A DNA stretch of 64,000 bases from Anaerolineae bacterium (lineage in GTDB: Bacteria; Chloroflexota; Anaerolineae; B4-G1; SLSP01), in the NCBI GenBank assembly GCA_034429475.1, contig DAOUGD010000123.1, forward strand, positions 6,934-70,933. Reading direction: 5' to 3'. Position 1 is the stretch's first letter. Each line of letters opens with the position of its first letter. Of this stretch, positions 11,751 through 36,404 are shown one piece after another. A program made the translations under genes and the position numbers. Below the pieces are notes generated by a model that had not been told where the DNA came from, did no database searches, and saw only the letters and a program-made list of their open reading frames with translations.

Positions 11751-11756
11751 TGGCGA

Positions 11757-12734: not shown

Positions 12735-12905
12735 GAGTGGGGACTCTCCCTACAAATACAATGGATAATCCCGCGATGAGTTCCGCTAATACCACCGTGG
12801 TTGCGCCAGTATTCATATAGACAATCAGATAAAGTTTTGGACAAAGTTATGCTAAGTTGAGCGTAAAACCTAAGACAAGTGTCAAAATCATTATCTGAAC
12901 CTCTA

Positions 12906-13103: not shown

Positions 13104-13200
13104 GGTCAGAACGCGCGGGAAAGTCAGCGAAGTTTTATCACAGCGTATGCAGAATCAGACTTTGAGATGGTCCTTATCACTTTTATTCAAGGAGCACCCT

Positions 13201-20810: not shown

Positions 20811-20849
20811 TTTTTTATGTGTCGGGGCAGAGCGATTTGAACGCTCGAC
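20811..20849 (-). other. tRNA 3-prime fragment (variable region + T-arm GAGCG-TTCAAAT-CGCTC + acceptor 3-prime strand TGCCCCG-A) with no 5-prime half; putative att-site remnant
   Basis: Reverse complement reads CATTGAAGAGGTCGAGCGTTCAAATCGCTCTGCCCCGACA; no CGGGGCA partner for the acceptor stem within 100 nt. Confidence 0.5.
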
Positions 20850-20994
20850 CTCTTCAATGTCCGGGCATGTTAGCTCATCCTACATAGATTTTCCCCTATT
20901 CCCTCACCTAGTATATAACCATTCCGACGCGCCGCAACAGGCTTAGCAGGTCTGTCGCGGCGCTATTTTGTATTTCATCCTATGGAGGTTTCCA

Positions 20995-21285
20995 ATGAAT
21001 GTAACCAATCCTAATCCCCACACGCATATTGTTTTTCGCGGCGACCGCTTGCGCGCGTTGCGTCAACAACTGCATATCTCAGTGGATCGCATTGCCCGCG
21101 CTACCGAGTTGACCACTCACCACATCTATCGCCTGGAACACAACGACCGCTTCAAAGTATGAGGCATCACAATTGCCAAATTAGCCCTGGCCCTCAACAC
21201 CAGTTGTGATTACCTCCTCAATCTTACCGACGACCCGCGCCCCCACAACACTCCTATGCCCATAGAGACTACACTCGACCTATGA
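20995..21285 (+). pseudogene. XRE-family HTH regulator interrupted by an in-frame TGA (21160-21162)
   Basis: MNVTNPNPHTHIVFRGDRLRALRQQLHISVDRIARATELTTHHIYRLEHNDRFKV*GITIAKLALALNTSCDYLLNLTDD. The conserved HTH C-terminal half continues in frame after the stop. RBS GGAGG before ATG 20995. Confidence 0.55.
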
Positions 21286-21434
21286 CCCTACCATCAGCGG
21301 ACCACTCTCTATGGGATACCGCCGGTACGGCATCGCGACGAAGAAATATATCTTCTAATGAAAACTCCGCAATGCTATGAGAGAAACCCATGGCCACATC
21401 CTGCCCCTGGTCACCGCCACCGGGAGGCCTAGCC

Positions 21435-21869
21435 ATGATGCCATTCGATCTGCGTCAATACTGCGACCTGAGCGACAGTGACTTGGCAGTATTACTCAAT
21501 CCTGGCAGTGCCTCGGCAGCGCAACGCCTGGTACTTAGCCAGGAAGGATGGCTCGAATTACCCACCTTGGCCCTGACTGCCGCTGGCGCACAACTCCGGA
21601 CACGAGCGCTCCGGTTGATACAGCGCGAGGAAACCTTACCACAACCGCTAAGCCTGCCCGACTTACCACATGGTAGCCTCTCAACCCAGGTCGCTTGCCT
21701 GCGCTATGTCGCAACCCATCCGGGCGCGGCCTGGCGGTATCTGACCCAGTTGTTTGGCCGCGAGGTGGTGGAACAGTGTCATCACGCCGGTTGGTTGACC
21801 GGTGAATTACGCCGGGGTGCGCCGCAGGAATTGACGCAGTTGGGTATCCGGTACGTGCAGGGAAACTGA
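21435..21869 (+). CDS. hypothetical protein (island)
   Basis: ATG preceded by GGGAGG; protein-like composition; no recognisable motif. Confidence 0.45.
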   Translation: MMPFDLRQYCDLSDSDLAVLLNPGSASAAQRLVLSQEGWLELPTLALTAAGAQLRTRALRLIQREETLPQPLSLPDLPHGSLSTQVACLRYVATHPGAAWRYLTQLFGREVVEQCHHAGWLTGELRRGAPQELTQLGIRYVQGN

Positions 21870-21880
21870 GGAGGAGCGCT

Positions 21881-23524
21881 ATGGACACCGTCGAATCACT
21901 CAAGGATCGCCGTCGCATGTATTTGAGCGCCGCGCGGGAAAAGCTGTGCTTGTTGGCTCGCGCCGCCCTGAACGTCACATTGGACCCAATCAGGGATGTC
22001 CGCCTCATCGCCGGGCCACGAGCCGGGGCGCTACTGATTGACGCCGGGGTGGCGGGGGGCGCCCTCATGAACTATCTCCGCGCCGACGAGTGCGCGAACG
22101 CGCGCCAGATTGTGCGGTGGGAATTCACCGGGGACCCCACCGTCGGGATGGATGGAGTGTACGTGCGCCTGGAAGCCAATTGGCCCGCCGACCTGGCCGA
22201 TACCGCGATTGAACTCCGGGCCGTCAGCCGGCATCCCCTGGGTTACGGACGCTGGATCGCCGCGCAGAACGAAAACGGCGTCACTATCAACGGCATTTTC
22301 GATGACCAGACCCCCCATTGGTTGATCGGCGGCACGTCGGGGTCGGGCAAGACTACCGCGATCCTGTCGTTGGTCTACCAGTTGTCGCGCAGGGTTTCCC
22401 CGAAGACCCGCCGGGAGCGGGAACAAAAAGAACGCGACCACGAAGCGGAAATGGCTAAAAAGCACGGGCGCGCGCCCCGGGAGATTGTTCCGGAAAACCC
22501 AGATACCCGGTTAGTCCTGATTGATGGGCGCAACGGCGCCGGCCTGGCGGTGCTACAGAGGTTACCCCACCTGGTCGGCCCCCTGGCCACCGACATTGAC
22601 AGCGCCACACTGGCTCTGGCCTGGGTAGACGCGGAGATCGACCGGCGTAATCGTCTCATCGTAGCGCAGGGCGCGGCTGCGGTACGGGCGCTGCCCCGGA
22701 TTGTCGTGGTCATTGATGAATTTCAAGAGCTGTTTCAGGATCCGACCGTGCGGGAACTGGCCCGGAAGGGGTTAGCCACCGGGCGGGCCGTCCGGGTCAG
22801 CTTTGTACTGGCAACCCAAAGTCCCGCGATGGCCGCGTTCGGCGACGACACGTCGATGCGGCGGAACCTGAGTGGGCGGATCGCCTTGCGCGTTACCGAT
22901 GGTGATGCCAGTCGGGTCGTAATGGGCAACTCCGACTTCCACGCCGAACGGTTGGCGGGGCAGGGCGACTGCTACATCCTCACCCCGGAACGCACGCAGC
23001 GCGCGCAAATCTGCTACCTGGATCCGGAAGACATCGCGGAGGAACCGCAGTATGAACCAGAACTGGCCGAGTGGCCAGAACCGGCGCAAACCCTGCCTGG
23101 CCAAAGCCAGATGACCAACTACGCCTTCTCCGGGACGGAACTGGCCCACGCGCTCCACGCTGTTACGCAAGGCTGGGGGCGCAATCGGCTGGGAGATACA
23201 ATGGTTGCCGCCGGTCTGGGTCGTCCAGGGGGAGCGCGGGGGCCGCGGTTACTCAAGGTGGGACGTGAACTGCAAGACACCCTGGAAACGTTGGGGCTGA
23301 TCGTCGTAGTCGCCCCGACCACAGACTCCGACCTGGAGGCCGCAGACCCTGAGCAGGAGGCCGTAGATTCCGCGCCGGAAACCGCCAGGACCGAGCCAGT
23401 CCCGGCATTTTCCCCGACGGACGGGGAATGGGCCGAGATAGATCCTGACCGGGTCACCCCTACACCGCGCCGCGGGCGCGCCAGTGGGAAGCGCCGGGGC
23501 AATGGCAATGGGGGGCAACCGTGA
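21881..23524 (+). CDS. FtsK/SpoIIIE-family DNA translocase (TraB/TraSA-like conjugative transfer ATPase)
   Basis: Walker A GGTSGSGKTTAIL; Walker B VVVIDEFQELF; C-terminal Pro/Arg-rich tail. Confidence 0.85.
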   Translation: MDTVESLKDRRRMYLSAAREKLCLLARAALNVTLDPIRDVRLIAGPRAGALLIDAGVAGGALMNYLRADECANARQIVRWEFTGDPTVGMDGVYVRLEANWPADLADTAIELRAVSRHPLGYGRWIAAQNENGVTINGIFDDQTPHWLIGGTSGSGKTTAILSLVYQLSRRVSPKTRREREQKERDHEAEMAKKHGRAPREIVPENPDTRLVLIDGRNGAGLAVLQRLPHLVGPLATDIDSATLALAWVDAEIDRRNRLIVAQGAAAVRALPRIVVVIDEFQELFQDPTVRELARKGLATGRAVRVSFVLATQSPAMAAFGDDTSMRRNLSGRIALRVTDGDASRVVMGNSDFHAERLAGQGDCYILTPERTQRAQICYLDPEDIAEEPQYEPELAEWPEPAQTLPGQSQMTNYAFSGTELAHALHAVTQGWGRNRLGDTMVAAGLGRPGGARGPRLLKVGRELQDTLETLGLIVVVAPTTDSDLEAADPEQEAVDSAPETARTEPVPAFSPTDGEWAEIDPDRVTPTPRRGRASGKRRGNGNGGQP

Positions 23525-23775
23525 CTGTCGTTTTGGCGCTGGGATTAGCCGTAACGGCGTTTGGGTCCGGGCTGCTGCTCGCGCTGGGCGCCACCGTAGT
23601 GCTCCCCAGGACGATCAACATTCGGGAATCCCGGCACAGCCTGAGCCTGATCCTCGCCGCGATCTTCTGCGGACTGCTGTTGGGGGCGCAGGTGCGTGAC
23701 CCGGAAATCTGGGCCGTGACCGTGTTGATCTTAGGGGGCTTCTTTAGTTATTTAGAACAATATGCTCGTCATTAA
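23521..23775 (+). CDS. small membrane protein (GTG start overlapping the FtsK-like stop)
   Basis: 84 aa, two TM helices; translational coupling (ccGTGActg). Confidence 0.5.
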   Translation: MTVVLALGLAVTAFGSGLLLALGATVVLPRTINIRESRHSLSLILAAIFCGLLLGAQVRDPEIWAVTVLILGGFFSYLEQYARH

Positions 23776-23776
23776 C

Positions 23777-23874
23777 TGCCTGCCTGCCTGCCTACCTGGG
23801 GTGGCCCCGGCACGGGCGGAATTTTCCGGGCATTCCGGGGCGACGGGGGCACAGACAGGGTAGGCAGGCAGGCA
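23777..23874. repeat. long inverted repeat: 17-19-bp arms CTGCCTGCCTGCCTACCTGG / CAGGGTAGGCAGGCAGGCA enclosing about 60 bp with nested palindromes
   Basis: Arms are reverse complements (one mismatch); inner sequence has GCCCCG...CGGGGC and GGAAT...ATTCC sub-palindromes. Confidence 0.65.
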
Positions 23875-23896
23875 CAAACACTGCAAGGAGGGGTCA

Positions 23897-24382
23897 ATGA
23901 CTAAGAAAGGTAGTCCACACAAAACCGTCACAACCTACGCCACGCCCGCACCGACCGGAGATGAACTCCGCCAGCGCCTAATCCTCATCGGCGTCGGACT
24001 GGCCGGCGCGCTGACGCTCGCCCTGTTAGGGGGCATCGTCTACTGGCTCTTCACGGCCACTCTGAGTACGCTGCGCTGGTGGGCGGGATTGGCGACTGTC
24101 GGGGCCGCGCTGCTCCCCTTCCTGGGATATTTTCTGGGGACATCTACCAGCCGGGCGCATCAGGAAGGCTTGGCCGCCGGGGTACAAACTGCTCAGGATA
24201 TTATGCAGACCGGCGTCGCCACCACTATGCGGGCCGCGGCCGACACGGCGGAGGTCCGGATCACGACCGCGCACGCCTTACGCCCGCCCGCCGCTGCCGG
24301 CAAGCTGACGCTGGATGAGTTAAATCGGCTTGTCCGCACCTTGCCGTCAACCACGGCGGACGGAGAACGCTATCAGGGATAG
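23897..24382 (+). CDS. membrane protein (island; Spd-like candidate)
   Basis: MTKK start after AAGGAGGGG; two TM helices then an Ala-rich soluble part. Confidence 0.5.
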   Translation: MTKKGSPHKTVTTYATPAPTGDELRQRLILIGVGLAGALTLALLGGIVYWLFTATLSTLRWWAGLATVGAALLPFLGYFLGTSTSRAHQEGLAAGVQTAQDIMQTGVATTMRAAADTAEVRITTAHALRPPAAAGKLTLDELNRLVRTLPSTTADGERYQG

Positions 24383-24399
24383 ATCAAGGAGAAAAGACC

Positions 24400-24987
24400 A
24401 TGACTAAGAAATCGCTGATTCAGTCCATTACTTCAAGGCCGGCGTCTAGCGAGGGAGGCCGTCCTGGTGACCAAACTATGACCTGGCAGGTGTCCGCCCC
24501 CGCCGTGCTGGCCGTAGCACAACCGGCCACCGTCCCAGCTCTGACGCGCCCGGAGTTGTTGACCTGGCTGTACACGGCGCCAGCCCGCCGATCAGATACC
24601 ACGCTGGCTGCCGACCTGGATACAGGCCTGGTGACGATTCTCGTGGCGCACACTCTGCAATACCCTGTGACCTGGGCCGAGCCAATGGGCCAGGTGGGCC
24701 GCTTTGTGCAGGCCGCCTACCAGCAACGGGACTACCCCGATCCGGACTTGATCGTGGCGCTGACCACGGACGCCACAGCGTTTCAAGCCGCGATGCGCCG
24801 CTTCCAGATGGTACGTCTGAAGCCACACCGGGGTTGGGGTAAGTGGTATCAAGCCATAATGGCCGCCGCCCGCGACCTGGTCGCCCCCTTGCAGGCGCTG
24901 CGCCCCACAGCGGACGAAGCCCGGTTTGTGCTGCGGTGGGCGGCTCTGGTCGCAGCCACTGGCAGCCAGTACGGCGTGGTGGAATAG
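24400..24987 (+). CDS. hypothetical protein (island)
   Basis: MTKK start with AAGGAG RBS; protein-like composition. Confidence 0.5.
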   Translation: MTKKSLIQSITSRPASSEGGRPGDQTMTWQVSAPAVLAVAQPATVPALTRPELLTWLYTAPARRSDTTLAADLDTGLVTILVAHTLQYPVTWAEPMGQVGRFVQAAYQQRDYPDPDLIVALTTDATAFQAAMRRFQMVRLKPHRGWGKWYQAIMAAARDLVAPLQALRPTADEARFVLRWAALVAATGSQYGVVE

Positions 24988-24997
24988 GGGCGGAGCG

Positions 24998-25300
24998 ATG
25001 AAACGCATGGTGGGGATCATGGGGGCGCTGACCTGGATTGGCGTCTTCTTCGCCCTGGCGGTGGGCAACGCCGCCGGCGATGACATCGCCGCCGCGCTCA
25101 ATCGGCTGGCCGACGCCTGGCAACCCACACCTACCCCAACACCCATGCGGGTAGTGACCATGAGCGTAAGCCACGCCGCCGGCGACTCGCCGGTGCTGGT
25201 CTTTCTGGTCCTGGCCGGGCTGTTGCTCGGTGGGATCGGCCTGTGCGTGTGGCTCCGGCGGCGCGCCCACCCCCACTTACTCCCGGAGGAAACCGCGTGA
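24998..25300 (+). CDS. small secreted/membrane protein with PTPTPTP linker
   Basis: Signal-like N-terminus MKRMVGIMGALTWIGVFFALAVGNAAG and C-terminal TM. Confidence 0.5.
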   Translation: MKRMVGIMGALTWIGVFFALAVGNAAGDDIAAALNRLADAWQPTPTPTPMRVVTMSVSHAAGDSPVLVFLVLAGLLLGGIGLCVWLRRRAHPHLLPEETA

Positions 25301-25499
25301 ACGCGGCCATCGGGATTTCAATCGTCGAGGGCGCGGCGCTGTGGGATATGCCCCAGCCTGCTGCGTCACTGGCTCAAACAAGGCGTGATTCCCAGCGATT
25401 GGCTGGGGAATAAGGTTGTGTAGTTGACGCTGGCCGCACTGGTCACGCTCAGTAAATGGAAATGGTAAGGTTATTCAACCAGAAACGGAGGACGCACTG

Positions 25500-26735
25500 A
25501 TGGATGCTAATTTGGTCACGACACCGACAATGAACACCGACACCCAGCCCCAGTTCCAGGTCGTGGGCCTGGACGAAGGCGCGGGCGCCGTCAAAATCTA
25601 CACCGCATTCGGCGCAACGGAGTTTAACTCCCAGATCGCCCACAACGGGACGGACGCGCCGGGCGCGGTCGCCGGGCTGGAAACCCTGACCCCGCCCCTG
25701 CAAATCACCTTCACCGGCGGCACGTTCTACACCGGTCCCGGCGCGCACGCCTGGGGCCGCCCGGTGGAGAACCTGGACTTCGGCCGCTTCGCCGGCAGCC
25801 CGGAGATGGCGGCCATCCTCTACGGGGCCTTTACCCGCCATGTCGAAACCTATGGTACACTCGCCCCACTACGGCTCAAGGTCGGCCTGCCGCAGCAGGC
25901 GTTGGCCGGCGAGGCGGGCAAGGAAATCATCCCCGGCGTGAAAAGTTGGCTGACCGGCGCCCATCAGTGGGCGGCGCAGAACGGCCACGTCCCACCCGCG
26001 GCGCGTGCAGCGGCGCGCGAGCACCTGGAACGCTTCGCGGCAACCGCCAGCAAGGACGATCTCATTGCCCGTGCTGCGCAAGAAGGACTGACGCTGGCCC
26101 GCTCCTGGCACAAGGCCCAGATGGTGGACGCCATGCTGGACAATGCCGATCTCGTTGTCAGTTTTGGCGGCGGTACGCTCCACACGGATTACAGCCTGGA
26201 GGTGCGCGATGTGCAGGTGACCTCACAGCCGGTGGGGGCGTGGTTCGACTTCCTGTTGGACGAGGCCGGCAGTTTCCTCCCGGCGCGCAAGCCGCTGTAC
26301 GCCCAGGAAATCGGCGTCATCTCCATCGGTATGAGCACCGTGGAACTGTTGGTCGTACAGCAGGGCAAGGCCAGCCCCCGGTTCACCCGCGGCGAGACTG
26401 AAGGCGTGCAGCGACTGTTGGCCCTGGCGAATCCCCGCAATCACTACTCCCGCGGCGAGATGGACGCCCGGCTGCGCAGCGGAGCGCTCAACACCGAACT
26501 GCCCACCTTGTTGCCGATGTGGTGGCCGGACATCAACGGCCTGATCAATCAGGTATGGGAAAGCACCTGGGAGCGGTTTGGCGCAGTGATCATCGTCGGC
26601 GGTGGGGCGATCTTGTTGGGCGACTACCTGCGGCGCAAGTTCCGCGAGAAGGCCGTCATCCCAGATAGCCCCGTGCTGGCCGTGGCGCGGGGGCTGTACA
26701 AGTTCGGCGTGATGCAGACGCGGCAGGGGAAATGA
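25500..26735 (+). CDS. ParM/StbA-like actin-fold ATPase (plasmid segregation protein)
   Basis: Phosphate-1 like VVGLDEGAGAVKIY and a second phosphate loop ISIGMSTVELLVV; 411 aa. Confidence 0.6.
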   Translation: MDANLVTTPTMNTDTQPQFQVVGLDEGAGAVKIYTAFGATEFNSQIAHNGTDAPGAVAGLETLTPPLQITFTGGTFYTGPGAHAWGRPVENLDFGRFAGSPEMAAILYGAFTRHVETYGTLAPLRLKVGLPQQALAGEAGKEIIPGVKSWLTGAHQWAAQNGHVPPAARAAAREHLERFAATASKDDLIARAAQEGLTLARSWHKAQMVDAMLDNADLVVSFGGGTLHTDYSLEVRDVQVTSQPVGAWFDFLLDEAGSFLPARKPLYAQEIGVISIGMSTVELLVVQQGKASPRFTRGETEGVQRLLALANPRNHYSRGEMDARLRSGALNTELPTLLPMWWPDINGLINQVWESTWERFGAVIIVGGGAILLGDYLRRKFREKAVIPDSPVLAVARGLYKFGVMQTRQGK

Positions 26736-26740
26736 GCGTG

Positions 26741-26789
26741 AATTCTTTGACGTAAAGAATTATCGCTAAATTCTTTACGTCAAAGAATT
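26741..26789. promoter_or_regulatory. two inverted copies of a 21-bp near-palindrome AATTCTTTGACGTAAAGAATT / AATTCTTTACGTCAAAGAATT (centromere-like or operator site)
   Basis: Copies at 26741-26761 and 26769-26789 are exact reverse complements. They lie between the parM-like stop and the next small gene. Confidence 0.65.
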
Positions 26790-26809
26790 TCCGACCTTTG
26801 AGGTGCAAG

Positions 26810-27049
26810 ATGGCGCGTATTTCTAAAACTGAACGCCCCCAGCGCATCAATGTCTCTTTGTTGCTCTATCCGAGTCGGCATCAGGCCGTGATGGATTATC
26901 TGGGCCGCGCGGATGGCCTGAGCCGCGCGGCCAAAGTCATCAACGCCATCACGGTCGCCCTTACCGGCGGCGCGCTCGCCACCTCCCAGGAGGTGTCTCC
27001 GGATGAAGTCGCCACCATGTTGGCCGATATGGAAGGCTTGTTTAGTTAG
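26810..27049 (+). CDS. small protein downstream of the ParM-like gene (candidate ParR-type adaptor / DNA-binding protein)
   Basis: MARISKTERPQRINVSLLLYP... 80 aa; position analogous to parR; no motif proof. Confidence 0.45.
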   Translation: MARISKTERPQRINVSLLLYPSRHQAVMDYLGRADGLSRAAKVINAITVALTGGALATSQEVSPDEVATMLADMEGLFS

Positions 27050-27236
27050 TCTGACGGGGAGTCCCGCGTTTTCCAGGAGAACATTGATGACGCCCATTAC
27101 CTTTGCACACTACGCGGCCCTGGTCTCACCGGCCGACGCCCTGGCTGGCGTCCTCCGTCCAGGATGTCGGCCGGTGAAGCCCGCGCCGCGCCGGTGGCTG
27201 TTGTTCCCATTAATCTTTCACCAACAAGGAGAGCCG

Positions 27237-27578
27237 ATGTCAACATATCTCGATCAACTCACCCGGCGGCTGGCGGATCTATCCGCTATCAGCGCCATTC
27301 ACGGCGCAGAAAACACCGTTAGTTTCACCAGTCAGGGACAGGTCTGGCAACTCGTGGGCGACCCGGACAACGACTGTATCCACTTGCTCCAAGCGGACGG
27401 GGGCGAAAAACTGTCCTGGTCCTGGACGCAGTACGTGGCGCTGCCGGTAGATGTGCTGCTCATAGACCTGCTGCCAGCGTTGGGGTTGGCTAGTCTGACC
27501 TCTGTGCTGCAAATCGCAGACGGTCTTTTAGGTCAGCGCCGGGGGGAGCAGCGGTCGGCGCAACCCCTTTGGAGGTAG
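27237..27578 (+). CDS. hypothetical protein (island)
   Basis: ATG preceded by AAGGAGAG; the longer ORF in the track has an Arg/Pro-rich N-extension. Confidence 0.45.
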   Translation: MSTYLDQLTRRLADLSAISAIHGAENTVSFTSQGQVWQLVGDPDNDCIHLLQADGGEKLSWSWTQYVALPVDVLLIDLLPALGLASLTSVLQIADGLLGQRRGEQRSAQPLWR

Positions 27579-27585
27579 GTAACCG

Positions 27586-27981
27586 ATGCACAGTCAACCA
27601 CAGCCCATAAAAATCACCTTTACCGTGCCGCCAGAAATGGCGCGCATCTTAACGGAGCTGGTGAGTGCGCCCGCGCGCCAGCAACGCCATTTGGCCGAAG
27701 TGTTGATCGCCGAAGCCATGCAGCTCAACCAGGTCGCGGAAAAGTGCCGCGAAGCCACCGCCCCAAACAACCTGGATAACCCCCAGCAGCTAGCTTCTGT
27801 GCTCGAACAGCAGTCAGAATGGCTAACCCATTTAGCGCGCTGGCTATGGAATGTTAGTCAAGGCAGCAATGTCGCGGCTGAGGACTATCAAAACTCTGCC
27901 CCTATCCCGCTGGCAGTCAATGTGCAGCGCGAGTTAGATCGGGGACAAGCGGCGGGAGCTACCCGCGATGGCGACCAATAA
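27586..27981 (+). CDS. hypothetical protein (island), possible RHH-like N-terminus
   Basis: GGAGG RBS; IKITFTVPPEMARILTEL. Confidence 0.45.
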   Translation: MHSQPQPIKITFTVPPEMARILTELVSAPARQQRHLAEVLIAEAMQLNQVAEKCREATAPNNLDNPQQLASVLEQQSEWLTHLARWLWNVSQGSNVAAEDYQNSAPIPLAVNVQRELDRGQAAGATRDGDQ

Positions 27982-28110
27982 CCCCGCCGTAAGGCGGACC
28001 CTGGCCGCGCCGGCGGTCGCCGATGCGTAGCCGTTCCTCTCAACCGGGGGGCTACCGCGGCGCTCGGCGCTGGGCTACCTGGGGGGGCGAGTTAGGGAAA
28101 GGAACTCAGG

Positions 28111-28941
28111 ATGAGCTTTCGCTACTACGGCAGTAAGAAAAGTCTGGCCGCGTGGATTACGGAAATGTTGCCGCGCCACGTCTGCTACGTCGAACCCTAC
28201 GGCGGCAGCGCGGCGGTGTTGCTGCATCGCAATCCACCCGCGCCCCGCGAGGTGTACAACGACCTCGACGACCAGGTCGTGACGCTGTTCCGCGTGCTGC
28301 GTGAGCGTCCAGCGGAGTTGGCCGCGCAGGTTGCCTTCACCCCCTACGCCCGCCGCGAGGTGGAAACCGCCCGCCAGCCGCTGGCTCCCACCCACCCGGA
28401 CTATGACCTGGAAGTGGCCCGCCGTTTCCTGATCCGCGCCGGGCAGACCCGCGCGGGGGCCTCACGGCGGGATGTCCATTGGATCTGGCAAAAGGCAGGG
28501 AATCGGGGCGGCTACTACCCGGCGGAATGGGCCGAGTTGCCGGCGGAACTCCTGCGCATCGCCGCGCGCCTCAAGCACGTCCAGATCGAGCACACGGACG
28601 CGCTGACGGCGATTGTGCGCTACGACAGCCCGCAGACCTGCTTCTACCTCGACCCGCCGTATCTGTTTCCGCACAAGCAGCGCGCCGGGACGTACCGCTG
28701 CGAAATGACGCCGGACGATCATCGGGAACTAGCGCAGCTCCTTCACGACATCAAAGGCATGGCGCTCATCAGCGGCGTGCCGGGCGAGTACGACCAGTTG
28801 TACGGCGACTGGCGGCGCGAATGTCTACCGGCGCTCACCAGCAGTCACACGGTCACGCCGGAATGTGTGTGGCTCTCGCCGGCGGCGCAACGGTACGCCC
28901 CTCAACCGCGCCTGTGGGCCGAGGCCGGCGATGCCCTTTAA
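28111..28941 (+). CDS. DNA adenine methyltransferase, D12 class (Dam-like)
   Basis: N-terminal FRYYGSKKSLAAWI and catalytic DPPY (CFYLDPPYLFP). Confidence 0.85.
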   Translation: MSFRYYGSKKSLAAWITEMLPRHVCYVEPYGGSAAVLLHRNPPAPREVYNDLDDQVVTLFRVLRERPAELAAQVAFTPYARREVETARQPLAPTHPDYDLEVARRFLIRAGQTRAGASRRDVHWIWQKAGNRGGYYPAEWAELPAELLRIAARLKHVQIEHTDALTAIVRYDSPQTCFYLDPPYLFPHKQRAGTYRCEMTPDDHRELAQLLHDIKGMALISGVPGEYDQLYGDWRRECLPALTSSHTVTPECVWLSPAAQRYAPQPRLWAEAGDAL

Positions 28942-29245
28942 GCGTTGGCTGTATCCACGCAATTGGAAAGCGATTGCGGCGCGGATCAAGACGGCGGCGG
29001 GCTGGCGGTGTGAACAATGCGGCCATCCGCACGACCCGGTGGGGTACTATGTCCTGGCAGTGCATCACATTGATGGCGACCGGGCGAACAACGCGGACGA
29101 AAACCTGGTGGCGTTGTGCCAACGCTGTCACCTGGCGCTGCACGCGCGGAAGCTGGTCGGGCAACGGATGTTCGAGTTTGCCTGGCCCACCTGGTGGCGC
29201 AAACGCCAGCCGCCGGCGGAACACGCCGGGGAAAAACACGACTGA
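28931..29245 (+). CDS. HNH endonuclease
   Basis: HNH motif HHIDGDRANNADENLVALCQRCH plus CEQCG zinc knuckle; ATG overlaps the Dam stop by 11 nt. Confidence 0.8.
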   Translation: MPFKRWLYPRNWKAIAARIKTAAGWRCEQCGHPHDPVGYYVLAVHHIDGDRANNADENLVALCQRCHLALHARKLVGQRMFEFAWPTWWRKRQPPAEHAGEKHD

Positions 29246-29266
29246 TTTCGCACAACGGAGGAACCG

Positions 29267-29908
29267 ATGGAAGTGGATAACACATTTATTCCAGATAGAT
29301 TTGCAGATTTGATCGCTGCGGGGCTGATGTGCCCCTATTGTCATATTCCGCTGGTGGCAACTAACTTAGTTCCCCTACACAGATTAGCCATAGGAGTACA
29401 CGCGGGGCGGCCCTGGATCGGGACCACTCATACCCACGCCACTGGCGAACTGACTCACATTTACTGTGAACAGTGCGGCTACCCCGAAATCGTCTGGACA
29501 GAAGCAGAGCAGGTCGCGCTGCGCCAATACGAGATACAAGCCCTGGCTGTGTTCGAGCAGTACCCCGAACAGTTCCCGGTGTATATCTATCGCCAGGATG
29601 ATGGGTTACAGTTTAGCTTGGTTGAAACTGGCGCAAAATTACTCAAAACCATCTATCCGCTTTACCGCGTAATGAGCCGCTCAACATCTCAACCAACGCA
29701 TGTATGGGAGTCGGCGGGAAACGCATTTCACACCCCGGACGCCGCGGCGGCACAGTGTCATTCATTTGGCATTTACGAACAATGGGTCACACCCTTGCGT
29801 CTCTACACGGTGTGGCCATGGGAAGATCGGATATGGATACTACAACCGTTGCATGAAGAGGACTTGTGCAACTACCCGGAGTACCTGACGCCGCAGAGGG
29901 CAAGATAA
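29267..29908 (+). CDS. hypothetical protein with zinc-ribbon Cys pairs (CPYC...CEQC)
   Basis: GGAGG RBS; 213 aa. Confidence 0.5.
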   Translation: MEVDNTFIPDRFADLIAAGLMCPYCHIPLVATNLVPLHRLAIGVHAGRPWIGTTHTHATGELTHIYCEQCGYPEIVWTEAEQVALRQYEIQALAVFEQYPEQFPVYIYRQDDGLQFSLVETGAKLLKTIYPLYRVMSRSTSQPTHVWESAGNAFHTPDAAAAQCHSFGIYEQWVTPLRLYTVWPWEDRIWILQPLHEEDLCNYPEYLTPQRAR

Positions 29909-30949
29909 ATGATCCTGGCATTACCTATCTATACCTGGGGCGCCGCCCCGGAAAACCTGAAAACGCGCCGTCAACTGGCCGAAATGGGCTTACGGCCCGG
30001 CGGCCCGGAAGTGGCGCGCGTGGAGTGGTTCCGGCAGGGGACACCCAGGTTTGCCCGACTGTATGACGTGGCCCAGGCCGTGCCGAAGTCGCCGGCCACG
30101 TCTACGCAGTTAGCCGCACTGGCAAAAGCACGGCTGAAGCGGCAACAATGCCCGGTCTGCGGCTATGCCCTGGGACATATACCGGGTCGGCGTTTCTATC
30201 CACCCACCGATTGCCCACAATGCTGCGCCCGCCAACGCCAGGCAGACCGCGCGCGGGCGACCCAGCGCGCGCAACAGGCATTGGCGAATCCGCAAGCCGT
30301 CATCCTGGACACCGAAACGACTGACCTTGACGGCTACCTTGTCCAGATCGCCGTGTTGAGCGGGGACGGAACGGTGCTGCTGGACACGCGGCTCAACCCG
30401 GGGGCCGCCATCAGCCCGGACGCCCAGGCCATCCACGGAATTACCGCCGAGATGGTGGCAGCTGCGCCCAGGTTTCAGGACATGGAAGCCGAGCTACAAG
30501 CCCTGCTCACTGATCGGCCGGTGTGGATTTACCACGCCGATTTCGACATCGGGGTCCTGGATCGGGAAGTGGAGCGGGCACACCCCCGCGACCGCCACGC
30601 GCCGGGGGAGTGGACGCCAGCGTGGCCGAGTGCGCTGCACCACTATTGCGCGATGGAACTGTACGCGGCGTGGGTAGGCGAGTGGAGCGACTATTACCGC
30701 AACTATCGCTGGCAGCGCCTGCCGGGTGGGGATCACACGGCGCTGGGCGACTGTCAGGCGACATTGGCGGTACTCAAAGCTATGGCCACCGGCGGGAAAC
30801 CAGATGCCGGCTTTCAAACAATGGGCACTGATTGCCAATATTGCCCTACCTGCGCCCGATTTGTCTGGGTGGTGGGGTGCAACGCCGCCGGGCAATTCAT
30901 CTGCCCGGATTGTGGGGCAGTGACGCAGGAACAGGAGTTACCGTTTTGA
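29909..30949 (+). CDS. DEDDh 3-prime-5-prime exonuclease (DnaQ-like) fused to zinc-finger modules
   Basis: Exo I ILDTETTD, Exo II IYHADFDIGVLD, Exo III HTALGDCQATLAVLK; CPVCG and CPDCG zinc fingers. Confidence 0.75.
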   Translation: MILALPIYTWGAAPENLKTRRQLAEMGLRPGGPEVARVEWFRQGTPRFARLYDVAQAVPKSPATSTQLAALAKARLKRQQCPVCGYALGHIPGRRFYPPTDCPQCCARQRQADRARATQRAQQALANPQAVILDTETTDLDGYLVQIAVLSGDGTVLLDTRLNPGAAISPDAQAIHGITAEMVAAAPRFQDMEAELQALLTDRPVWIYHADFDIGVLDREVERAHPRDRHAPGEWTPAWPSALHHYCAMELYAAWVGEWSDYYRNYRWQRLPGGDHTALGDCQATLAVLKAMATGGKPDAGFQTMGTDCQYCPTCARFVWVVGCNAAGQFICPDCGAVTQEQELPF

Positions 30950-31383
30950 TGGACGAGGTCTGGCCTGGCGGGCGCGCTGGCGATCCGCGCGCTCTGGCGT
31001 TGTACCGGCGGCATTACTCGTGCTATCAGTATCGGGACGGCCGCCGCCCTACGCGCTTTGCCGGACCAGGGGACCGCCTGGTGCTGCTCACACCGGAATG
31101 CAATGCCCTGTTGGTATGGCGCAAATTCCGCGATGCCCGCGGGCAGGTCGGCGTGACCTGCGCCGTGTTCCGCAACGCAGGGCCGCGGTTGTCCCGCGAT
31201 TTGCTGCGCGCCGGGATGGCGCGGGTCTGGACGCGCTGGCCAGGCGCACGGTTATATACCTGCGTCAACCCATACCGGATTCGCAGCACCAATCCGGGCT
31301 ACTGTTTTCGAATGGCGGGATGGCGCAAATGCGGGCGCACGCAGGCGCGGCGACTGGTGATTTTGGAGGCATATCCAGATTGA
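30949..31383 (+). CDS. conserved hypothetical plasmid/phage protein
   Basis: ATG overlaps the upstream stop (TGATGG); ALYRRHYSCYQY...NPGYCFRMAGW. Confidence 0.5.
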   Translation: MDEVWPGGRAGDPRALALYRRHYSCYQYRDGRRPTRFAGPGDRLVLLTPECNALLVWRKFRDARGQVGVTCAVFRNAGPRLSRDLLRAGMARVWTRWPGARLYTCVNPYRIRSTNPGYCFRMAGWRKCGRTQARRLVILEAYPD

Positions 31384-31411
31384 GAGTAATGCTGTGAAAC
31401 AAGGACGAGCA

Positions 31412-31783
31412 ATGACCACCAACTCAGACTTCAAAGCCTGGTTATTAACCCAAATCCAGCCGCGTGGTTGGCGACTGGCCGACCTGGCGCGGCACAGTGG
31501 AGTACGCTACACTACCCTCAACCGTATCTTCAGTGGCACGCGGGGCATCGGCCCGGATGTCTGCCGGGCATTGGCACACGCCCTCGGGCTGCCCGCCGAA
31601 ATGGTATTCCGGCAAGCCGGGTTACTCCCGGCGGCGCCCGATCTGACCGCCATCCCGGAACTGCTGGCTGTGGCCCTGGCTATGCTCACCGCGCTGCCGC
31701 CATCCGAGCAGCAATTGATCGGCGAGTTCATTCAATGGCGCTACACCCGCCAGCCATTGGAAAACGCACAGGGGAAACGATGA
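31412..31783 (+). CDS. XRE-family HTH transcriptional regulator (repressor-like)
   Basis: LADLARHSGVRYTTLNRIFSGTRGIGPDVCRALAHALG. Confidence 0.6.
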   Translation: MTTNSDFKAWLLTQIQPRGWRLADLARHSGVRYTTLNRIFSGTRGIGPDVCRALAHALGLPAEMVFRQAGLLPAAPDLTAIPELLAVALAMLTALPPSEQQLIGEFIQWRYTRQPLENAQGKR

Positions 31784-32184
31784 CTGAGAGCCAGGTAGAT
31801 TTCACCGAATTGTCGCATGGCGCGCAACGCCGGATCATGCGCCGCCCCACTGTAGCAGTATTGGCACGGGTCAGTAGGGGCCGGGGCTGGAGCTTGATAT
31901 GGCCGCACAATGCGGCTCACCGGGAAGCATTGCTCATGCAAGGCTACCATCCCATTGGCAATATCCCGGATAAAGCGACGTGGTCCGCGCAACCCCCGCC
32001 CCAGTACGTGGTGCAGTGCGGACGCTGGGGCGTGCAGGTACACGCTGACGGGACGTATACCCTGCGCCGTACGGACTGCCCGATCACCCTGCGACTGACA
32101 GGGCCAGATTTGACCGACGCCACGAACGCGCTGGTGCAGGTCGAGGTTGCCCGCCAACCGGTATTACGGTCCGTTTCAGAATGA
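31780..32184 (+). CDS. hypothetical protein (island)
   Basis: ATG overlaps the upstream stop; the 5-prime part of track ORF 31468..32184 is an out-of-frame overlap. Confidence 0.45.
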   Translation: MTESQVDFTELSHGAQRRIMRRPTVAVLARVSRGRGWSLIWPHNAAHREALLMQGYHPIGNIPDKATWSAQPPPQYVVQCGRWGVQVHADGTYTLRRTDCPITLRLTGPDLTDATNALVQVEVARQPVLRSVSE

Positions 32185-32247
32185 GGCTGGAAAGCATGGC
32201 ACTTATGGTGGGAAATCTTATCAATAGCGTAGGAGTCGTTATACATC

Positions 32248-32592
32248 ATGCGGAATTTGTCTACATGGCTACTGGAGCAGCTGGAACAGCGGCGCTGGGA
32301 TGTTGGCGAATTGGCGCGGCGCAGCTACCTATCGGAACAAACAATTTACTCGCTGCTCAACCCCAAGACCCCCAACGTCAGATCGGATACCCTGCTCAAA
32401 CTGATCCGCACCCTCAAAATTTCGTTAGTCACCTTTGCGGTGCAGCTTAGCGGAATGCCCGAATATCGCCAGCCCGAAACGCTGGAAATCGCCGATCTGT
32501 GCGATTTGTTGGGGGATGACGAACGGCGCGTCATTCTGGGTATCGTACGCTCACTATTCTCTGAGGCGAAAGATGATCCAGACGAGATATGA
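32248..32592 (+). CDS. XRE-family HTH transcriptional regulator
   Basis: VGELARRSYLSEQTIYSLLNPKTPNVRSDTLLKLIRTLKISLVTF. Confidence 0.55.
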   Translation: MRNLSTWLLEQLEQRRWDVGELARRSYLSEQTIYSLLNPKTPNVRSDTLLKLIRTLKISLVTFAVQLSGMPEYRQPETLEIADLCDLLGDDERRVILGIVRSLFSEAKDDPDEI

Positions 32593-32814
32593 GCAGCGTG
32601 GGACAGCCGGCCAGCGGAGACTGGCCGGTAGAAATCCCGACCACGCACTGGGCGCGGTGGCTGGAACAGGCGCGGCAGGTATAACAGCCGCTACGCCCGG
32701 TTGAAAATCGGGCCGACGGCCCAAGCCTCGTTCATCGTGACCGTGCAGTTAACGCTAGACGAGTTGGGTGAGATTCTGGCCAGGGCAATACGCAATGGAG
32801 ATAGGGTGGTGAAA

Positions 32815-33663
32815 ATGGAAACGAAAGCCTTCGATGGCGCCCGCGTGTGGCAAGCGGCGCTGGGGGAACTGCAATTGCAGATGACCAGCGCCACCTATCA
32901 TACGTGGCTGAGTGATACGCGCTGGGTGGCGACGGATACCGACAGTGAGACACTGATCATCGCGGTGAAGAATGGCTATGCCGTGGAGTGGCTCTCCAAC
33001 CGGCTGTACCCGGTCGTCGAGCGCACCCTCAAGCGCATCACTGGCAACGGTTGGGCAGCGCAGTTCGTTGTTCAGGAGCCTACCCCCATCCAGCGCCCGG
33101 AGTGGTTGGCGACTGAAGTCGCATGGCGCGCCCCGGACTTTGATCCGAGCGACCCCAAGAAAGTGGCCGGGTGGGTACCGGTGCCGGAGTACGGGCAACT
33201 GTTCTGGGCGCCCTTGTTGGGGCCGATTGCCTGGCGGGTGTGGGAGATCGTGCGGCGTACCGACCATCAGGGCGCACCTCACGATTGGACACCGCGTGTG
33301 CGTTACAGCGCACCGGAACTGGCCCGGCTCGTGCCGTGCGGCAAGCAGGCCTTGACCGGGCGCAACCGGCAGTGTGATCCCGATACCCCTGGGGCGCAAG
33401 AAATGACGCTGACGCCACTGGGCCAGGCCGCCATGACGACTTGGGCGCGGCACAACCCTGGTGCGTTTGACCGGTTGCAGCAGTATGATTTGGCCGAGAT
33501 CACTGTCAGTGGCAGTGGCCGGCGCCAGGTCTATACGCTGAGTGTGCGTTGGCGGTTGCCATTGCTACACCCCACCGAGGTCGCGGAACTCAGCGCTGAG
33601 CTACAAATCCGCCATGACCAGTGGGTACTGGAACACGGCATGGATCCGGAGTTGTGGGCATAA
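32815..33663 (+). CDS. putative replication initiator with DnaA N-terminal-like domain
   Basis: ARVWQAALGELQLQMTSATYHTWLSDTRWVATDTDSETLIIAVKNGYAVEWLSNRLYPVVERTL resembles the DnaA_N fold pattern; followed immediately by iterons. Confidence 0.5.
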   Translation: METKAFDGARVWQAALGELQLQMTSATYHTWLSDTRWVATDTDSETLIIAVKNGYAVEWLSNRLYPVVERTLKRITGNGWAAQFVVQEPTPIQRPEWLATEVAWRAPDFDPSDPKKVAGWVPVPEYGQLFWAPLLGPIAWRVWEIVRRTDHQGAPHDWTPRVRYSAPELARLVPCGKQALTGRNRQCDPDTPGAQEMTLTPLGQAAMTTWARHNPGAFDRLQQYDLAEITVSGSGRRQVYTLSVRWRLPLLHPTEVAELSAELQIRHDQWVLEHGMDPELWA

Positions 33664-34207
33664 AACCACGATACGGTGCAAATGCACCGAATATATGATG
33701 CAAATGCACCGATAATGTAACGAGCAGGTGATTGCGTCCAGAGATCAGTACAGGAAGATTGCAGGAAGCGAGTTATGTTCACTCTGTCAGTGACGTGCGC
33801 CAATCCTACAGATTTGGGAAATAGCGCGGCGTTGATTGTGGTCTGTCTCCATAACCAAGGTCTCGCGTGCCGCTGGAACCCGCGAAGCCCGGTTGCCGGG
33901 GGCAACTTGCGGTCAGACAGTTTTACGTTCTGTTTGCCGGATATGGTAAAGGTGGGCGCCGAAACCGCCGATCAACTACGCCACCTTACCTGGAATTTAC
34001 ATAACACGGCTGAGATGATAGACACCGAAATTGCGGCATTTGAGCATGGCTGCCACTCCGCGACCACCACTGTCCGGTGGAATGGGATCGTCCGGAGGCC
34101 GATCAATCCCCGTTTTCGCTGCAAATGCACCGAATATCCGATGCAAATGCACCGATAATGATGCAGCAAACTGTCTAAAGAGTAATATCGCACACAAAAA
34201 ATTACTC

Positions 34208-34244
34208 GCCACCGTCCCCCAGGAGCACTCCTGGGGGCGGTGGC
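34208..34244. other. strong hairpin: GCCACCGTCCCCCAGGA-GCAC-TCCTGGGGGCGGTGGC, followed by CCTTTTAAAGG
   Basis: 16-bp stem with one bulge; within the iteron region. Confidence 0.6.
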
Positions 34245-34320
34245 CTTTTAAAGGGGTTGCCAGAGGCTGGAAAACCAGGCTACGGTCCCCGGGGCATAGC
34301 GGGGCCAGCCGCGCGATTTA

Positions 34321-34359
34321 GCCGCGCATATCCGAGGTTTTGCCCCGGATATGCGCGGC
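34321..34359. other. strong hairpin: 14-bp perfect stem GCCGCGCATATCCG / CGGATATGCGCGGC, loop AGGTTTTGCCC
   Basis: Perfect complementarity read directly. Confidence 0.6.
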
Positions 34360-34758
34360 ACTGTAACTCCGAACGCATCTGGCATTCGGTGCATTTGCAC
34401 CGACCCCAGGGAGACAAGATAAGAATTAAAGATAAAACAAGAAGCCATCTGGTTCTTTATCTTATGTATGAGTCTGGCGCGCGCAGGCGCACTGCCGGGC
34501 CCTTCTCTCCAGAAAAGCTCTGTAATAGTTTTGTTGCCATTCGCCGGTTAGAAAATGTTCTAGTATTGTGGACTGGCAGTCAAAGGGATTGGAACAAAAA
34601 ACAGGCAGATTGGCACGATTTAGCTAGAAAGTTATGTTATCATAATCCCCGATGCAGCGGGATTTTTAATTAGAATCCAGCCTAAAAAACGTCTCGTGAC
34701 CGGCGCTAACTGCGGAGGCGTTTTTTGGGTGTCAATTTTACTGTGGGGAATAAGCAAA

Positions 34759-34932
34759 ATGAAACCTAAGCAACAAGCCGCTGTTTTACGTCAAGTCGCC
34801 GCCGAACTCGAACAAGGAAAATGCTCTCAGGGATTACTTTCCGCCATCCTGACCGGGTTATTTGGTAGCTCAGAACCGTCCGCCACGCGCGGCAGTGGTA
34901 AAAAATCGACCACCAACAAAAAGAAGCGGTAA
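34759..34932 (+). CDS. small protein with Lys-rich C-terminal tail (SGKKSTTNKKKR)
   Basis: 57 aa; weak. Confidence 0.3.
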   Translation: MKPKQQAAVLRQVAAELEQGKCSQGLLSAILTGLFGSSEPSATRGSGKKSTTNKKKR

Positions 34933-34937
34933 TAAAT

Positions 34938-35249
34938 ATGCTCACATTGTTGACGACCGCGCTCACGATCAGTTTGCTTTCCATTGGCTTGCTCCTGCTG
35001 CGTTTGCGGCGCAATGTCGCTGAAGAAGCCCTGGGCAGCGCGTTGTTGGGCCTCGGCGGTATTCTGCTGATTTCCCTGACGCTGGCCGACGCGGTGTTTG
35101 CGCAGTTGTTGGGTGGGCAACTCCCCGTATATTTCTGCATCGGTCTGGGCAGCCTGACTGGTCTGGTCGGCGTCGGACTGACCCTGGCGAAATTCCGGGC
35201 CTATCGCCGCACGCGCCGCGAATTGACGCAGCGGTGTACGCAACTCTAG
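34938..35249 (+). CDS. small membrane protein
   Basis: 103 aa, three hydrophobic segments. Confidence 0.4.
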   Translation: MLTLLTTALTISLLSIGLLLLRLRRNVAEEALGSALLGLGGILLISLTLADAVFAQLLGGQLPVYFCIGLGSLTGLVGVGLTLAKFRAYRRTRRELTQRCTQL

Positions 35250-35300
35250 CTCGAGCACAGTCCCCGTCGGCTAACTGTCCCAGCCCATTGGATACCCCGT

Positions 35301-36404
35301 TTGATGAAAACCCGATTAGCCTATCTGGATAATCTAAAAGTGCTGTTGACCGTACTGGTGATCATTTTACACGCCAGCGCGGCCTATGGCGGCCCGACGA
35401 ATTTCAGCGTGGCTCAGGCGGCTGACAGCGCCCTGGCCCGGCTGGTTTTCGCCGCCATTGCCGTGCGCTGTCAGCCTTTCGTGCTCGGCTGTTACTTTTT
35501 CATCGCCGGATACCTGACACCGCCGGCGCAGGCCGGCCACGGAACGCAGTTTCTGCGGCGGCGACTGCGGCAATTAGGCCTCCCACTCCTGGCTTACGAT
35601 CTTCTGGGTGAACGGTTAATTGCGGCCGAAATCGCCCTGGCGGAGCAGGGTTGGCCAGCGGCGCGCACTGCATTCTGGGCCACGCCGCTGGTTATCGGCT
35701 CCGGGCCGCTGTGGTTTGTGGAGCGGCTGCTCTGCTTGACGCTGCTGTGGGTGTTGGCGGAAAAATGGCTCGCGCCGGTTTTGGTGCGGCTCCGGCTAAC
35801 CGCTCCCACGATAGGCTGGCTTTGTGGTGGTTTGGGGCTGGTGTCGTTTGCGGTGCGGATCGTCTGGCCGTTCCAGCGGGAACTGCAATTCTTAAGCATA
35901 GATTTCCCCTGGTTACCCCTGCAATACCCCGCGTACTTTCTCCTGGGAATCGCCGCGTACCGTAACCAGGAATTGGCCCGGCTAGATCGGCGCGCCGCAC
36001 TACACTGGTTGTTATCTGCCTGGGTCGTGTTGGGCTTTTTCGGCGGACTGTATGTCTACGGAGGCGGATTGGACCACCCGCTGTTATTCGCCGGCGGACT
36101 GCGCTGGCAGAGTCTCGCCGCCGCGCTGTTTGAGCAATACTTTGGTCTGGCGCTGACCCTGGGCCTGTTGGGAGTATTTCAGCAGTGGGGCAACCGCCCC
36201 TGGCCAGCCTGGTTGGCGCGCCCCACCTTCTGGGTGTACGGGCTGCACGCGCCGCTCCTGGTAGCCGTGTGGCTGCTACTGCGCCGGTGGACGCTCCCTT
36301 CACTGGTCGCCTTTGGTCTCACCAGCGTGACGACGGTGGGAGTCAGTTGGGGTCTGGCGCTGGTAATCCTGGAGGCTAAAAAACGATGGATGCCGCGAGT
36401 TTAG
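35301..36404 (+). CDS. acyltransferase family 3 (OpgC/OatA-like) membrane protein
   Basis: N-terminus RLAYLDNLKVLLTVLVIILHASAAYGG; about 10 TM helices. Confidence 0.8.
   Translation: MMKTRLAYLDNLKVLLTVLVIILHASAAYGGPTNFSVAQAADSALARLVFAAIAVRCQPFVLGCYFFIAGYLTPPAQAGHGTQFLRRRLRQLGLPLLAYDLLGERLIAAEIALAEQGWPAARTAFWATPLVIGSGPLWFVERLLCLTLLWVLAEKWLAPVLVRLRLTAPTIGWLCGGLGLVSFAVRIVWPFQRELQFLSIDFPWLPLQYPAYFLLGIAAYRNQELARLDRRAALHWLLSAWVVLGFFGGLYVYGGGLDHPLLFAGGLRWQSLAAALFEQYFGLALTLGLLGVFQQWGNRPWPAWLARPTFWVYGLHAPLLVAVWLLLRRWTLPSLVAFGLTSVTTVGVSWGLALVILEAKKRWMPRV

Follow-up and report, generated by a model that had tools for sequence, protein, structure and literature searches.

We conclude that the non-coding module extending from 33664 to about 34470 in the 64,000-nucleotide stretch of Anaerolineae contig DAOUGD010000123.1 analyzed here (the window) is probably the origin used for vegetative replication by an integrated Anaerolineae element that is plasmid-like and may be conjugative, with the gene directly upstream (32815-33663, here called rep) encoding its initiator. 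This reading is based on the non-random occurrence of palindromic boxes that are confined to the module, the conservation of the module, the way in which the box sequence tracks the protein clade, the identity of the N-terminal part of the rep product as DnaA domain I, and the coincidence of the local minimum in G+C content (GC) with a purine tract. The genetic context, which is like that of plasmids and integrative conjugative elements, points the same way, with FtsK/SpoIIIE and ParM-like proteins encoded here and ParA, a ParB-like protein and a tyrosine integrase in relatives. These elements most likely form a family of integrated plasmid-like elements in Chloroflexota that has so far gone undescribed. 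The original prediction, made from the letters of the window, had proposed an iteron-type theta plasmid origin; repeats beside a putative initiator gene are indeed present, in a module conserved in about 40 loci, but they belong to an integrated mobile element rather than to a free theta plasmid.

Exact copies of TGCAAATGCACCGA are found five times in the window, at 33677, 33699, 34120 and 34142 on the forward strand and at 34386-34399 on the reverse strand, and nowhere else in the 64 kb, so that the five copies reported earlier are real. When up to two mismatches are allowed there are six matches, the sixth being the opposite strand of the fifth site, compared to 0.78 expected by chance, and this count was reached in none of 100 shuffles. 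Each site is a palindrome of 14-16 bp with the dyad symmetry CGGTGCA-AA-TGCACCG, in which both 7-bp arms are present in copies 1 and 5 and the left arm is weaker in copies 2-4. Because the motif is itself palindromic, what had been described as an inverted copy is one more box of the same symmetry, and the repeats cannot be called directional iterons, although the pairs and their positions were correctly given. The window therefore carries two box pairs and one single site. Boxes within a pair are spaced by 22 bp from start to start, and the two pair units (33674-33717 and 34117-34160) are 44 nt each, 93% identical and 443 bp apart. Box 5, the single distal site, may have a degenerate partner about 22 bp further upstream, at roughly 34364-34377. 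The first pair begins 11 nt past the rep stop codon, and its 14-nt core is unchanged in a 97%-identical strain (L060) in which flank and spacer bases differ.

Loci encoding full-length relatives of the rep protein were taken from genomes (L001, L002), metagenomes (L060-L096), IMG/VR (L097-L111) and an exact look-up (L119-L122), and all of them come from Chloroflexota/Anaerolineae assemblies. The module directly follows the homologous gene in about 40 loci, the encoded proteins being 28-97% identical, and where 300 nt or more of downstream sequence was available the boxes nearly always begin within tens of nucleotides of the rep stop codon or past one or two small open reading frames (ORFs). 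Its parts follow one another in the same order, namely at least two boxes, a GC-rich hairpin with a T-run, a variable spacer often containing another hairpin, one to three boxes, a GC cluster (CCCAGGGGG, consensus (T)CACCCAGGGGGT), a purine tract, and a short palindrome or pyrimidine run. Over the distal core, 29 loci can be aligned as box, 8 nt, box, CACCCAGGGGGT, purine tract and short palindrome; the purine-rich, A-rich tract is 35-45 nt long in relatives (AAnAAAAGAAAAAGAAAG) and 81-97% purine in most loci, and a short palindrome such as AAGAGATATCTCTCTT stands at the place of the pyrimidine run in the window. Boxes occur in pairs 21-23 bp apart across loci, and outside the module the box 8-mer is matched only 0-2 times per locus, over 2-20 kb of sequence. 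A scan of IMG/VR with the bare 14-mer returned mostly single, chance-like matches and was uninformative. When 20 ORFs of the window were tested, only the rep gene proved common to all 65 loci.

The box consensus, nGTG[CT]AAAT[GA]CACn, holds across proteins of 28-100% identity, and its variants follow the protein clades. The commonest form is GTGCAAATGCAC; GTGCAAAAGCAC is seen in L001, L068 and L070, GTGTAAATACAC in the L072-L083 clade and GTGCTTAAGCAC in L079, and the most divergent box (TGTCAAAATTGACA) goes with the most divergent proteins (L002 and L108). Such co-variation is expected for a cognate pair of protein and site, although it is confounded by descent. The same comparison bears on the suggestion that the boxes form a centromere-like partition site, which the centromere-binding adaptor of the ParM-like system found here or of the ParA system of relatives would recognize. 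That the element encodes a ParM-like protein, and that the module lies directly upstream of parA in L075, L121 and L122, where the centromere/operator repeats of type Ib systems are usually placed, would fit such a site. In the window, however, the ParM-like gene is 7 kb away and is directly followed by a different, perfect 21-nt inverted repeat, whereas in L119 parA is located 4 kb upstream of rep and an integrase gene comes after the module. Moreover, the box consensus is the same whether ParM, ParA or neither is present, and boxes follow rep in every locus, all of which makes a partition site quite improbable.

The rep protein consists of a DnaA domain I at residues ~10-90, a linker, and a C-terminal domain of about 170-180 residues; homologues begin at the position of the ATG at 32815. 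Pfam DnaA_N matches residues 10-68 with an expectation value (E) of 1.1e-7, and the predicted structure (predicted local-distance difference test score, pLDDT, 87) can be superimposed on Bacillus subtilis DnaA domain I (4tps) with a Foldseek E of 8e-7 and a root-mean-square deviation of 0.9 Å over 79 columns, at 24% sequence identity. Identity to domain I of the chromosomal DnaA of Anaerolineae is higher, with a mean of 57% and a maximum of 64%. DnaA N-termini were also the only matches when the family profile was compared to solved structures. Scanning a genome collection with the rep protein gave 59 loci, 57 of which are chromosomal DnaA proteins (~445 aa) from Anaerolineae and other Chloroflexota that match rep only over the N-terminal ~85 residues (45-66% identity). 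Neither the AAA+ domain III nor domain IV of DnaA is present in the 282 residues, of which only ~10-90 match DnaA. Searches of Pfam, NCBIfam and PHROGs with the rep protein returned DnaA_N alone, with no Rep_3, RepA, Phage_rep_O or rolling-circle Rep family, so that nothing supports rolling-circle replication, which we had also considered. No full-length relative is present in the plasmid reference collection, where the single match is to a dnaA N-terminus, and the phage reference collection contained no match.

The model of the C-terminal domain (pLDDT 88.9, predicted template-modeling score 0.81) has no match in the PDB at E < 0.2. Among predicted viral structures only one match is significant (E 8e-4, template-modeling score 0.52), to a Brevibacillus phage protein annotated as "putative replicon initiation protein", the other neighbors being replisome organizers, a GpO N-terminal domain and helix-turn-helix (HTH) proteins at E values of about 0.5-1.1, which are not significant. 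We infer from the order of secondary-structure elements that the fold may be winged-helix-like, and regard it as a putative origin-binding domain. A word-indexed search with this domain gave only 35 clusters, all unnamed, whereas an exhaustive phmmer search gave 125, mostly with DnaA_N followed by the DNA-binding domain. In the distant relatives P0093, P0103, P0140 and P0141 the order is reversed, DnaA_N coming after the DNA-binding domain, and the existence of both fusions argues that the two domains work together. The DNA-binding domain is also seen joined to a MUG113/T5orf172 domain (P0094), and DnaA_N is followed by several matched stretches of DNA-binding domain in P0048 and P0057.

The GC content of positions 34001-35000 is 0.51 compared to about 0.60-0.65 in the surrounding sequence, in agreement with the original prediction that the region is AT-richer, and its lowest value (0.30, at 34410-34469) lies on the purine tract directly past box 5. 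We found no DnaA-trio periodicity in this tract above that expected from composition, the run length being 3.10 compared to 2.96 in shuffled sequence and 114 of 500 shuffles reaching the observed value. The neighboring pyrimidine run and the tract fold no better than shuffled sequence (z -0.27) and so constitute a sequence feature rather than a stable structure. Both hairpins that had been noted in the module are strong. Hairpin 1 (-36.7 kcal/mol, z = -4.8) has 16 pairs, as claimed, arranged as 7+9 around one bulged T, so that it is not strictly perfect. A GC-rich hairpin followed by a run of 6-9 T occupies the same position in L001, L063, L064, L079, L108 and L110, and this conserved position suggests that hairpin 1 is the intrinsic terminator of rep, so that it is no evidence for the single-strand initiation site or antisense RNA proposed earlier. 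In the window the T-run has only four residues, which is why a scan with the terminator consensus gave no call there. Hairpin 2 (-38.1 kcal/mol, z = -4.0) has the perfect 14-bp stem that had been described and is identical in L060; some hairpin exists in the equivalent spacer of many relatives (L087, L107, L109, L079, L101, L097), although its sequence is not conserved. Nothing in the window reached the Rfam gathering thresholds, the only matches in 33600-34800 being at chance level (E 0.56-0.93).

The 443-bp distance between the two box pairs of the window has no family-wide meaning and is not a designed distance, because the intervening insert is specific to this lineage. The proximal boxes of the sister element L001, whose protein is 77% identical, are contiguous, with no 400-bp insert. 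L060 is 97% identical and occupies the same place in the chromosome; it lacks 202 bp of the insert (33783-33984), a number that is not a multiple of 3, and has GTG for the ATG of the ORF at 33775-34158. It differs from the window in the box flanks, but the 14-nt cores of the boxes, hairpins 1 and 2 and the purine tract are the same. This ORF (127 aa) is the only sizeable one in the non-coding region, and its GC at the three codon positions (0.52/0.49/0.63 compared to 0.65/0.50/0.75 in neighboring genes) is consistent with the earlier remark that ORFs here are composition-poor. It has no homologue but itself among 5.8 billion proteins. Its orphan status, its disruption in L060 by an out-of-frame deletion and loss of the ATG, and its weak codon signal led us to reject it as a real gene; it is probably not functional, and the insert is best seen as a lineage-specific insertion or duplication rather than as a gene to be regulated.

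In the mechanism that we propose, dimers of the initiator would bind the dyad-symmetric boxes through the C-terminal domain. Since 22 bp is equal to two helical turns, neighboring dimers would lie on one face of the DNA and be able to cooperate, and looping may join the proximal and distal box sets, which bracket the rep terminator and the structured spacer. The complex at the distal box, beside the GC cluster, would then destabilize the A-rich purine tract at 34408-34443, a likely unwinding region past box 5 that adds to the features noted originally. According to a review (PMC5448010), domain I is the part of DnaA that recruits DnaB and through which DnaA molecules contact one another and adaptor proteins. 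The N-terminal domain of rep, as a close copy of the host domain, might thus recruit either the replicative helicase of the host or the host's DnaA together with its adaptors, in which case the element would need no AAA+ initiator or helicase loader of its own. Transcription of rep would end at hairpin 1, feedback control through binding to the boxes is possible, and the 400-bp insert between the duplicated pairs would be an accident of the window lineage. We further suggest, tentatively and at somewhat less than even chances, that an initiator family of mobile elements arose by capture of the host DnaA domain I, fused in either order to an undescribed origin-binding fold, and that, bound to palindromic boxes of its own, it mimics the surface of DnaA that recruits the helicase, beside an unwinding element made of GC cluster and purine tract, without an AAA+ initiator or a dedicated loader.

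Several observations weigh against assigning an origin to this module. Box binding by the rep product is deduced from adjacency and from clade-level co-variation, the latter confounded by phylogeny. GC skew does not switch at the module, although this measure is uninformative for a co-oriented element of 13 kb. We found no integrase, att site or helicase/primase gene for the window element, which may be a non-replicating remnant. In addition, parA begins about 70 nt past the purine tract in L075 (4190-4265) and L121 (8998-9241), so that the distal module must contain or overlap the parA promoter in these loci, and palindromes in pairs, on either side of a terminator and ahead of the next operon, are an arrangement that repressor operators typically show as well. 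These last two points would also fit a module that is a transcriptional control region and not an origin, with the DnaA_N protein or another protein of the element acting as a dimeric repressor or activator at paired operators that flank the rep terminator, overlap the downstream promoter and are connected by looping. Paired dyad-symmetric sites with a 22-bp spacing are a classic operator arrangement, the module is intergenic and runs from a terminator to the next transcription unit, and sigma-70-like promoters follow it in L087, L101, L081 and L068, as does a weak predicted one in the window (34610-34638). A purely regulatory role, however, would leave unexplained the close copy of DnaA domain I in the protein and the occurrence of both fusion orders. 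Nor would it account for the family-wide GC cluster and ~40-nt purine tract, which are kept whether parA, an integrase gene, small ORFs or host DNA lie downstream, and no properly spaced -35/-10 pair could be seen by eye in the conserved core of the 29-locus alignment. Regulation and origin function can coexist, and a dual role is compatible with the data; control without replication is, in our judgment, unlikely.

Assuming that the module is an origin, it works most like lambda O/ori-lambda and the iteron plasmids, yet it lacks defining features of both, and it is not oriC either. As in lambda, where O dimers bind them, there are multiple dyad-symmetric initiator sites of ~18 bp next to an A+T-rich region, with binding here being presumed, and the initiator seems to have two parts, an origin-binding domain and a part that would bring in the host helicase. 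The structural neighbors of the C-terminal domain also include "GpO N-terminal" (E 1.1) and "replisome organizer" entries, neither being significant. In contrast to lambda, where the origin is inside the initiator gene, the boxes here begin past the stop codon and form a proximal and a distal set with a terminator between them; the part presumed to recruit the helicase copies DnaA domain I rather than a region that binds a P-type loader, and there is no sequence homology to Phage_rep_O. Theta-type origins have initiator-binding repeats and an adjacent AT-rich region (PMC2440964). Iteron theta plasmids of the RepA/Rep_3 type (pPS10, R6K, RK2) share with the window an initiator gene beside repeats, a 22-bp spacing, an AT-rich region by the last site, and initiator binding that probably doubles as autoregulation. 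Iteron origins are defined by at least three tandem 17-22-bp iterons in the same orientation, and they typically have 3-7 of these direct repeats, whereas the sites here are paired 7+2+7 dyads, host DnaA boxes are absent, there is no Rep_3 or RepA match, and the initiator carries DnaA domain I. The resemblance to oriC lies in that domain and in the succession of a box, a GC-rich cluster and an A-rich tract; the differences are the missing domains III and IV, boxes that are unrelated to TTATCCACA, which is not found with up to one mismatch anywhere in 29281-35323, and the absence of DnaA-trio periodicity.

The gene set of the element most resembles that of actinomycete integrative conjugative elements (AICEs) (PMC2440964). 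These are small (10-25 kb) integrated elements with a Rep gene and origin, an FtsK/SpoIIIE-type translocase and a recombinase, and the window element is ~13 kb long with FtsK/SpoIIIE-like and rep genes; in the AICE pMEA300, the rep gene has Rep-binding repeats and a hairpin at its 3' end (PMC2440964). Unlike AICEs, however, the present elements have a Chloroflexota host, a Rep protein unrelated to RepSA, RepAM or Prim-Pol, and ParM or ParA partition genes; there is no evidence for a rolling-circle nicking site, and neither integrase nor excisionase was found in the window copy. What appears to be new is the initiator/origin family: we found no paper on an initiator composed of DnaA domain I and a separate origin-binding domain, although the literature search was incomplete and this is weak evidence of novelty.

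The proposal, if true, has practical and mechanistic consequences. Anaerolineae and Chloroflexota are abundant in sludge, sediments and soils. To our knowledge, they currently have no plasmids or vectors, and almost no genetic tools exist in the phylum. A working origin would make the rep-plus-ori cassette of ~1.7 kb (32.7-34.5 kb) a candidate minimal replicon for these bacteria. DnaA domain I would be a portable helicase-recruitment module mounted on a non-DnaA DNA-binding domain, which bears on how the helicase is recruited in bacteria without DnaC or DnaI, and it would provide a third way into bacterial helicase loading besides iteron Rep proteins and lambda O/P. The signature nGTG[CT]AAAT[GA]CACn, CCCAGGGGG and purine tract offers a simple handle for finding such elements in metagenomes, and about 125 protein clusters now labelled "hypothetical" could be annotated.

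Table 1. Coordinates of the rep-origin region and of other element features in the window.
Feature	Positions	Strand	Remarks
Mobile element, approximate extent	21410-34570	+	Block syntenic with L001
FtsK/SpoIIIE-type ATPase	21881-23524		Pfam FtsK_SpoIIIE, E 2.2e-15
ParM-like gene	25500-26735		Below NCBIfam cut-off
Dam-type methyltransferase	28111-28941
RNase T-type exonuclease	29909-30949
XRE HTH regulator	31394-31783
Putative initiator (rep) gene	32815-33663	+	282 aa from ATG at 32815; upstream TTG at 32701 would give 320 aa
Proximal box pair A	33674-33712	.	Box 1 GGTGCAAATGCACC, 33675-33688; box 2 GATGCAAATGCACC, 33697-33710
Lineage-specific insert	33717-34116	.	Between duplicated box pairs; holds ORF 33775-34158
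Proximal box pair B	34117-34155	.	Box 3, 34118-34131; box 4, 34140-34153
Hairpin 1	34208-34250	+	Stem-loop 34208-34244, range includes TTTT after stem; GC-rich, between proximal and distal boxes
Hairpin 2	34321-34359	.	14-bp perfect stem plus 3 inner pairs
Distal box 5	34386-34403	.	TCGGTGCATTTGCACCGA, full 7+2+7 palindrome
GC cluster	34404-34413	+	CCCCAGGGAG; family consensus (T)CACCCAGGGGGT from alignment of 29 loci
Purine-rich, A-rich tract	34408-34443	+	83% purine, 61% A; proposed DNA-unwinding element
Pyrimidine run	34453-34465	+	TTCTTTATCTTAT; imperfectly complementary to part of purine tract

The limits of the mobile element (Table 1) were set by comparison with L001. Window positions 21410-33665 correspond to L001 1540-10830 in blastn and tblastx searches, the sequences being unrelated outside this block, and non-coding similarity continues to about 34570. 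The interval originally proposed for the origin, 33664-34700, is therefore probably somewhat too long, its last ~130 bases (about 34570-34700) being likely host flank. Ordinary host genes are present on the left (ABC transporter, nitroreductase, deaminase) and on the right (acyltransferase, histidine kinases). Relatives encode ParA, a large ParB-like protein, FtsK/SpoIIIE and tyrosine integrases, with FtsK/SpoIIIE family proteins and tyrosine integrases both seen in L119 and L121, and several are deposited in IMG/VR as "viral" contigs of 30-55 kb. No integrase was found in the window, including the left flank with its ordinary host genes, and no direct or inverted repeat of at least 10 nt connects the element ends. 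The recombinase of the window element may have been lost beside the frameshifted ORF fragments at 19.4-20.6 kb. A fragment at L001:3-602 that we had taken for the C-terminus of a serine recombinase has no Pfam match, and this assignment was withdrawn.

These boundaries also bear on the arm-type recombinase sites that the original prediction had raised as an alternative. In the form considered here, the pairs would be bound, at the right-hand end of the integrated element, by a site-specific recombinase or by an excision directionality factor. Both in the window and in L001 the module is within a few hundred bp of the end of synteny, and in L119 a tyrosine integrase gene follows it. The boxes, however, are palindromic, unlike the asymmetric arm sites of lambda-type attP, and the window yielded neither integrase nor att direct repeats. 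The module tracks rep whichever recombinase, if any, is present, with a constant box consensus, and it can be internal to the element, as in L121, where parA, FtsK and 20 more genes come after it; arm-type sites are thus unsupported, and we consider them very improbable.

Several other features were seen in and around the element. Directly to its left, on the reverse strand, 19419-20604 contains three successive ORF fragments in different frames (19419-19868, 19858-20187 and 20191-20604), which read as one frameshifted gene, possibly that of a transposase. A tRNA-like fragment with a T-arm-like sequence (GAGCGATTTGAACGCTC, reverse strand) occurs just left of the syntenic block at 20821-20880 in the window and at about 985-1050 in L001, and may be a remnant of the integration target; ARAGORN and Rfam made no tRNA call at either place, and no tRNA was found in the window, L001, L002 or L059. 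A short ORF at 20968-21162 has an XRE-type HTH-like start and stops after 64 aa, and may be a truncated regulator at the left end of the element. Six nucleotides past the stop codon of the ParM-like gene, at 26741-26789, are two perfectly complementary 21-nt arms (AATTCTTTGACGTAAAGAATT and AATTCTTTACGTCAAAGAATT), each nearly palindromic, which could be the terminator of that gene or a centromere/ParR-type site. A segment of ~1.5 kb (29222-30769), spanning an ORF of 213 aa together with the part of the RNase T-type exonuclease gene that encodes the N-terminus, is present in the window and L060, but not in L001. In the presumed host flank, just ahead of a small ORF at 34750, a hairpin with 15-bp arms stands between A6 and T6 at 34681-34729 (CCTAAAAAACGTCTC...GAGGCGTTTTTTGGG, -25.8 kcal/mol, z -4.0) and has the look of a bidirectional terminator. 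Finally, DnaA-box-like 9-mers (TTATCCACA with up to one mismatch) number 17 in the window compared to 8.2 expected, and seven of them are located in 6805-13316, a part of lower GC.

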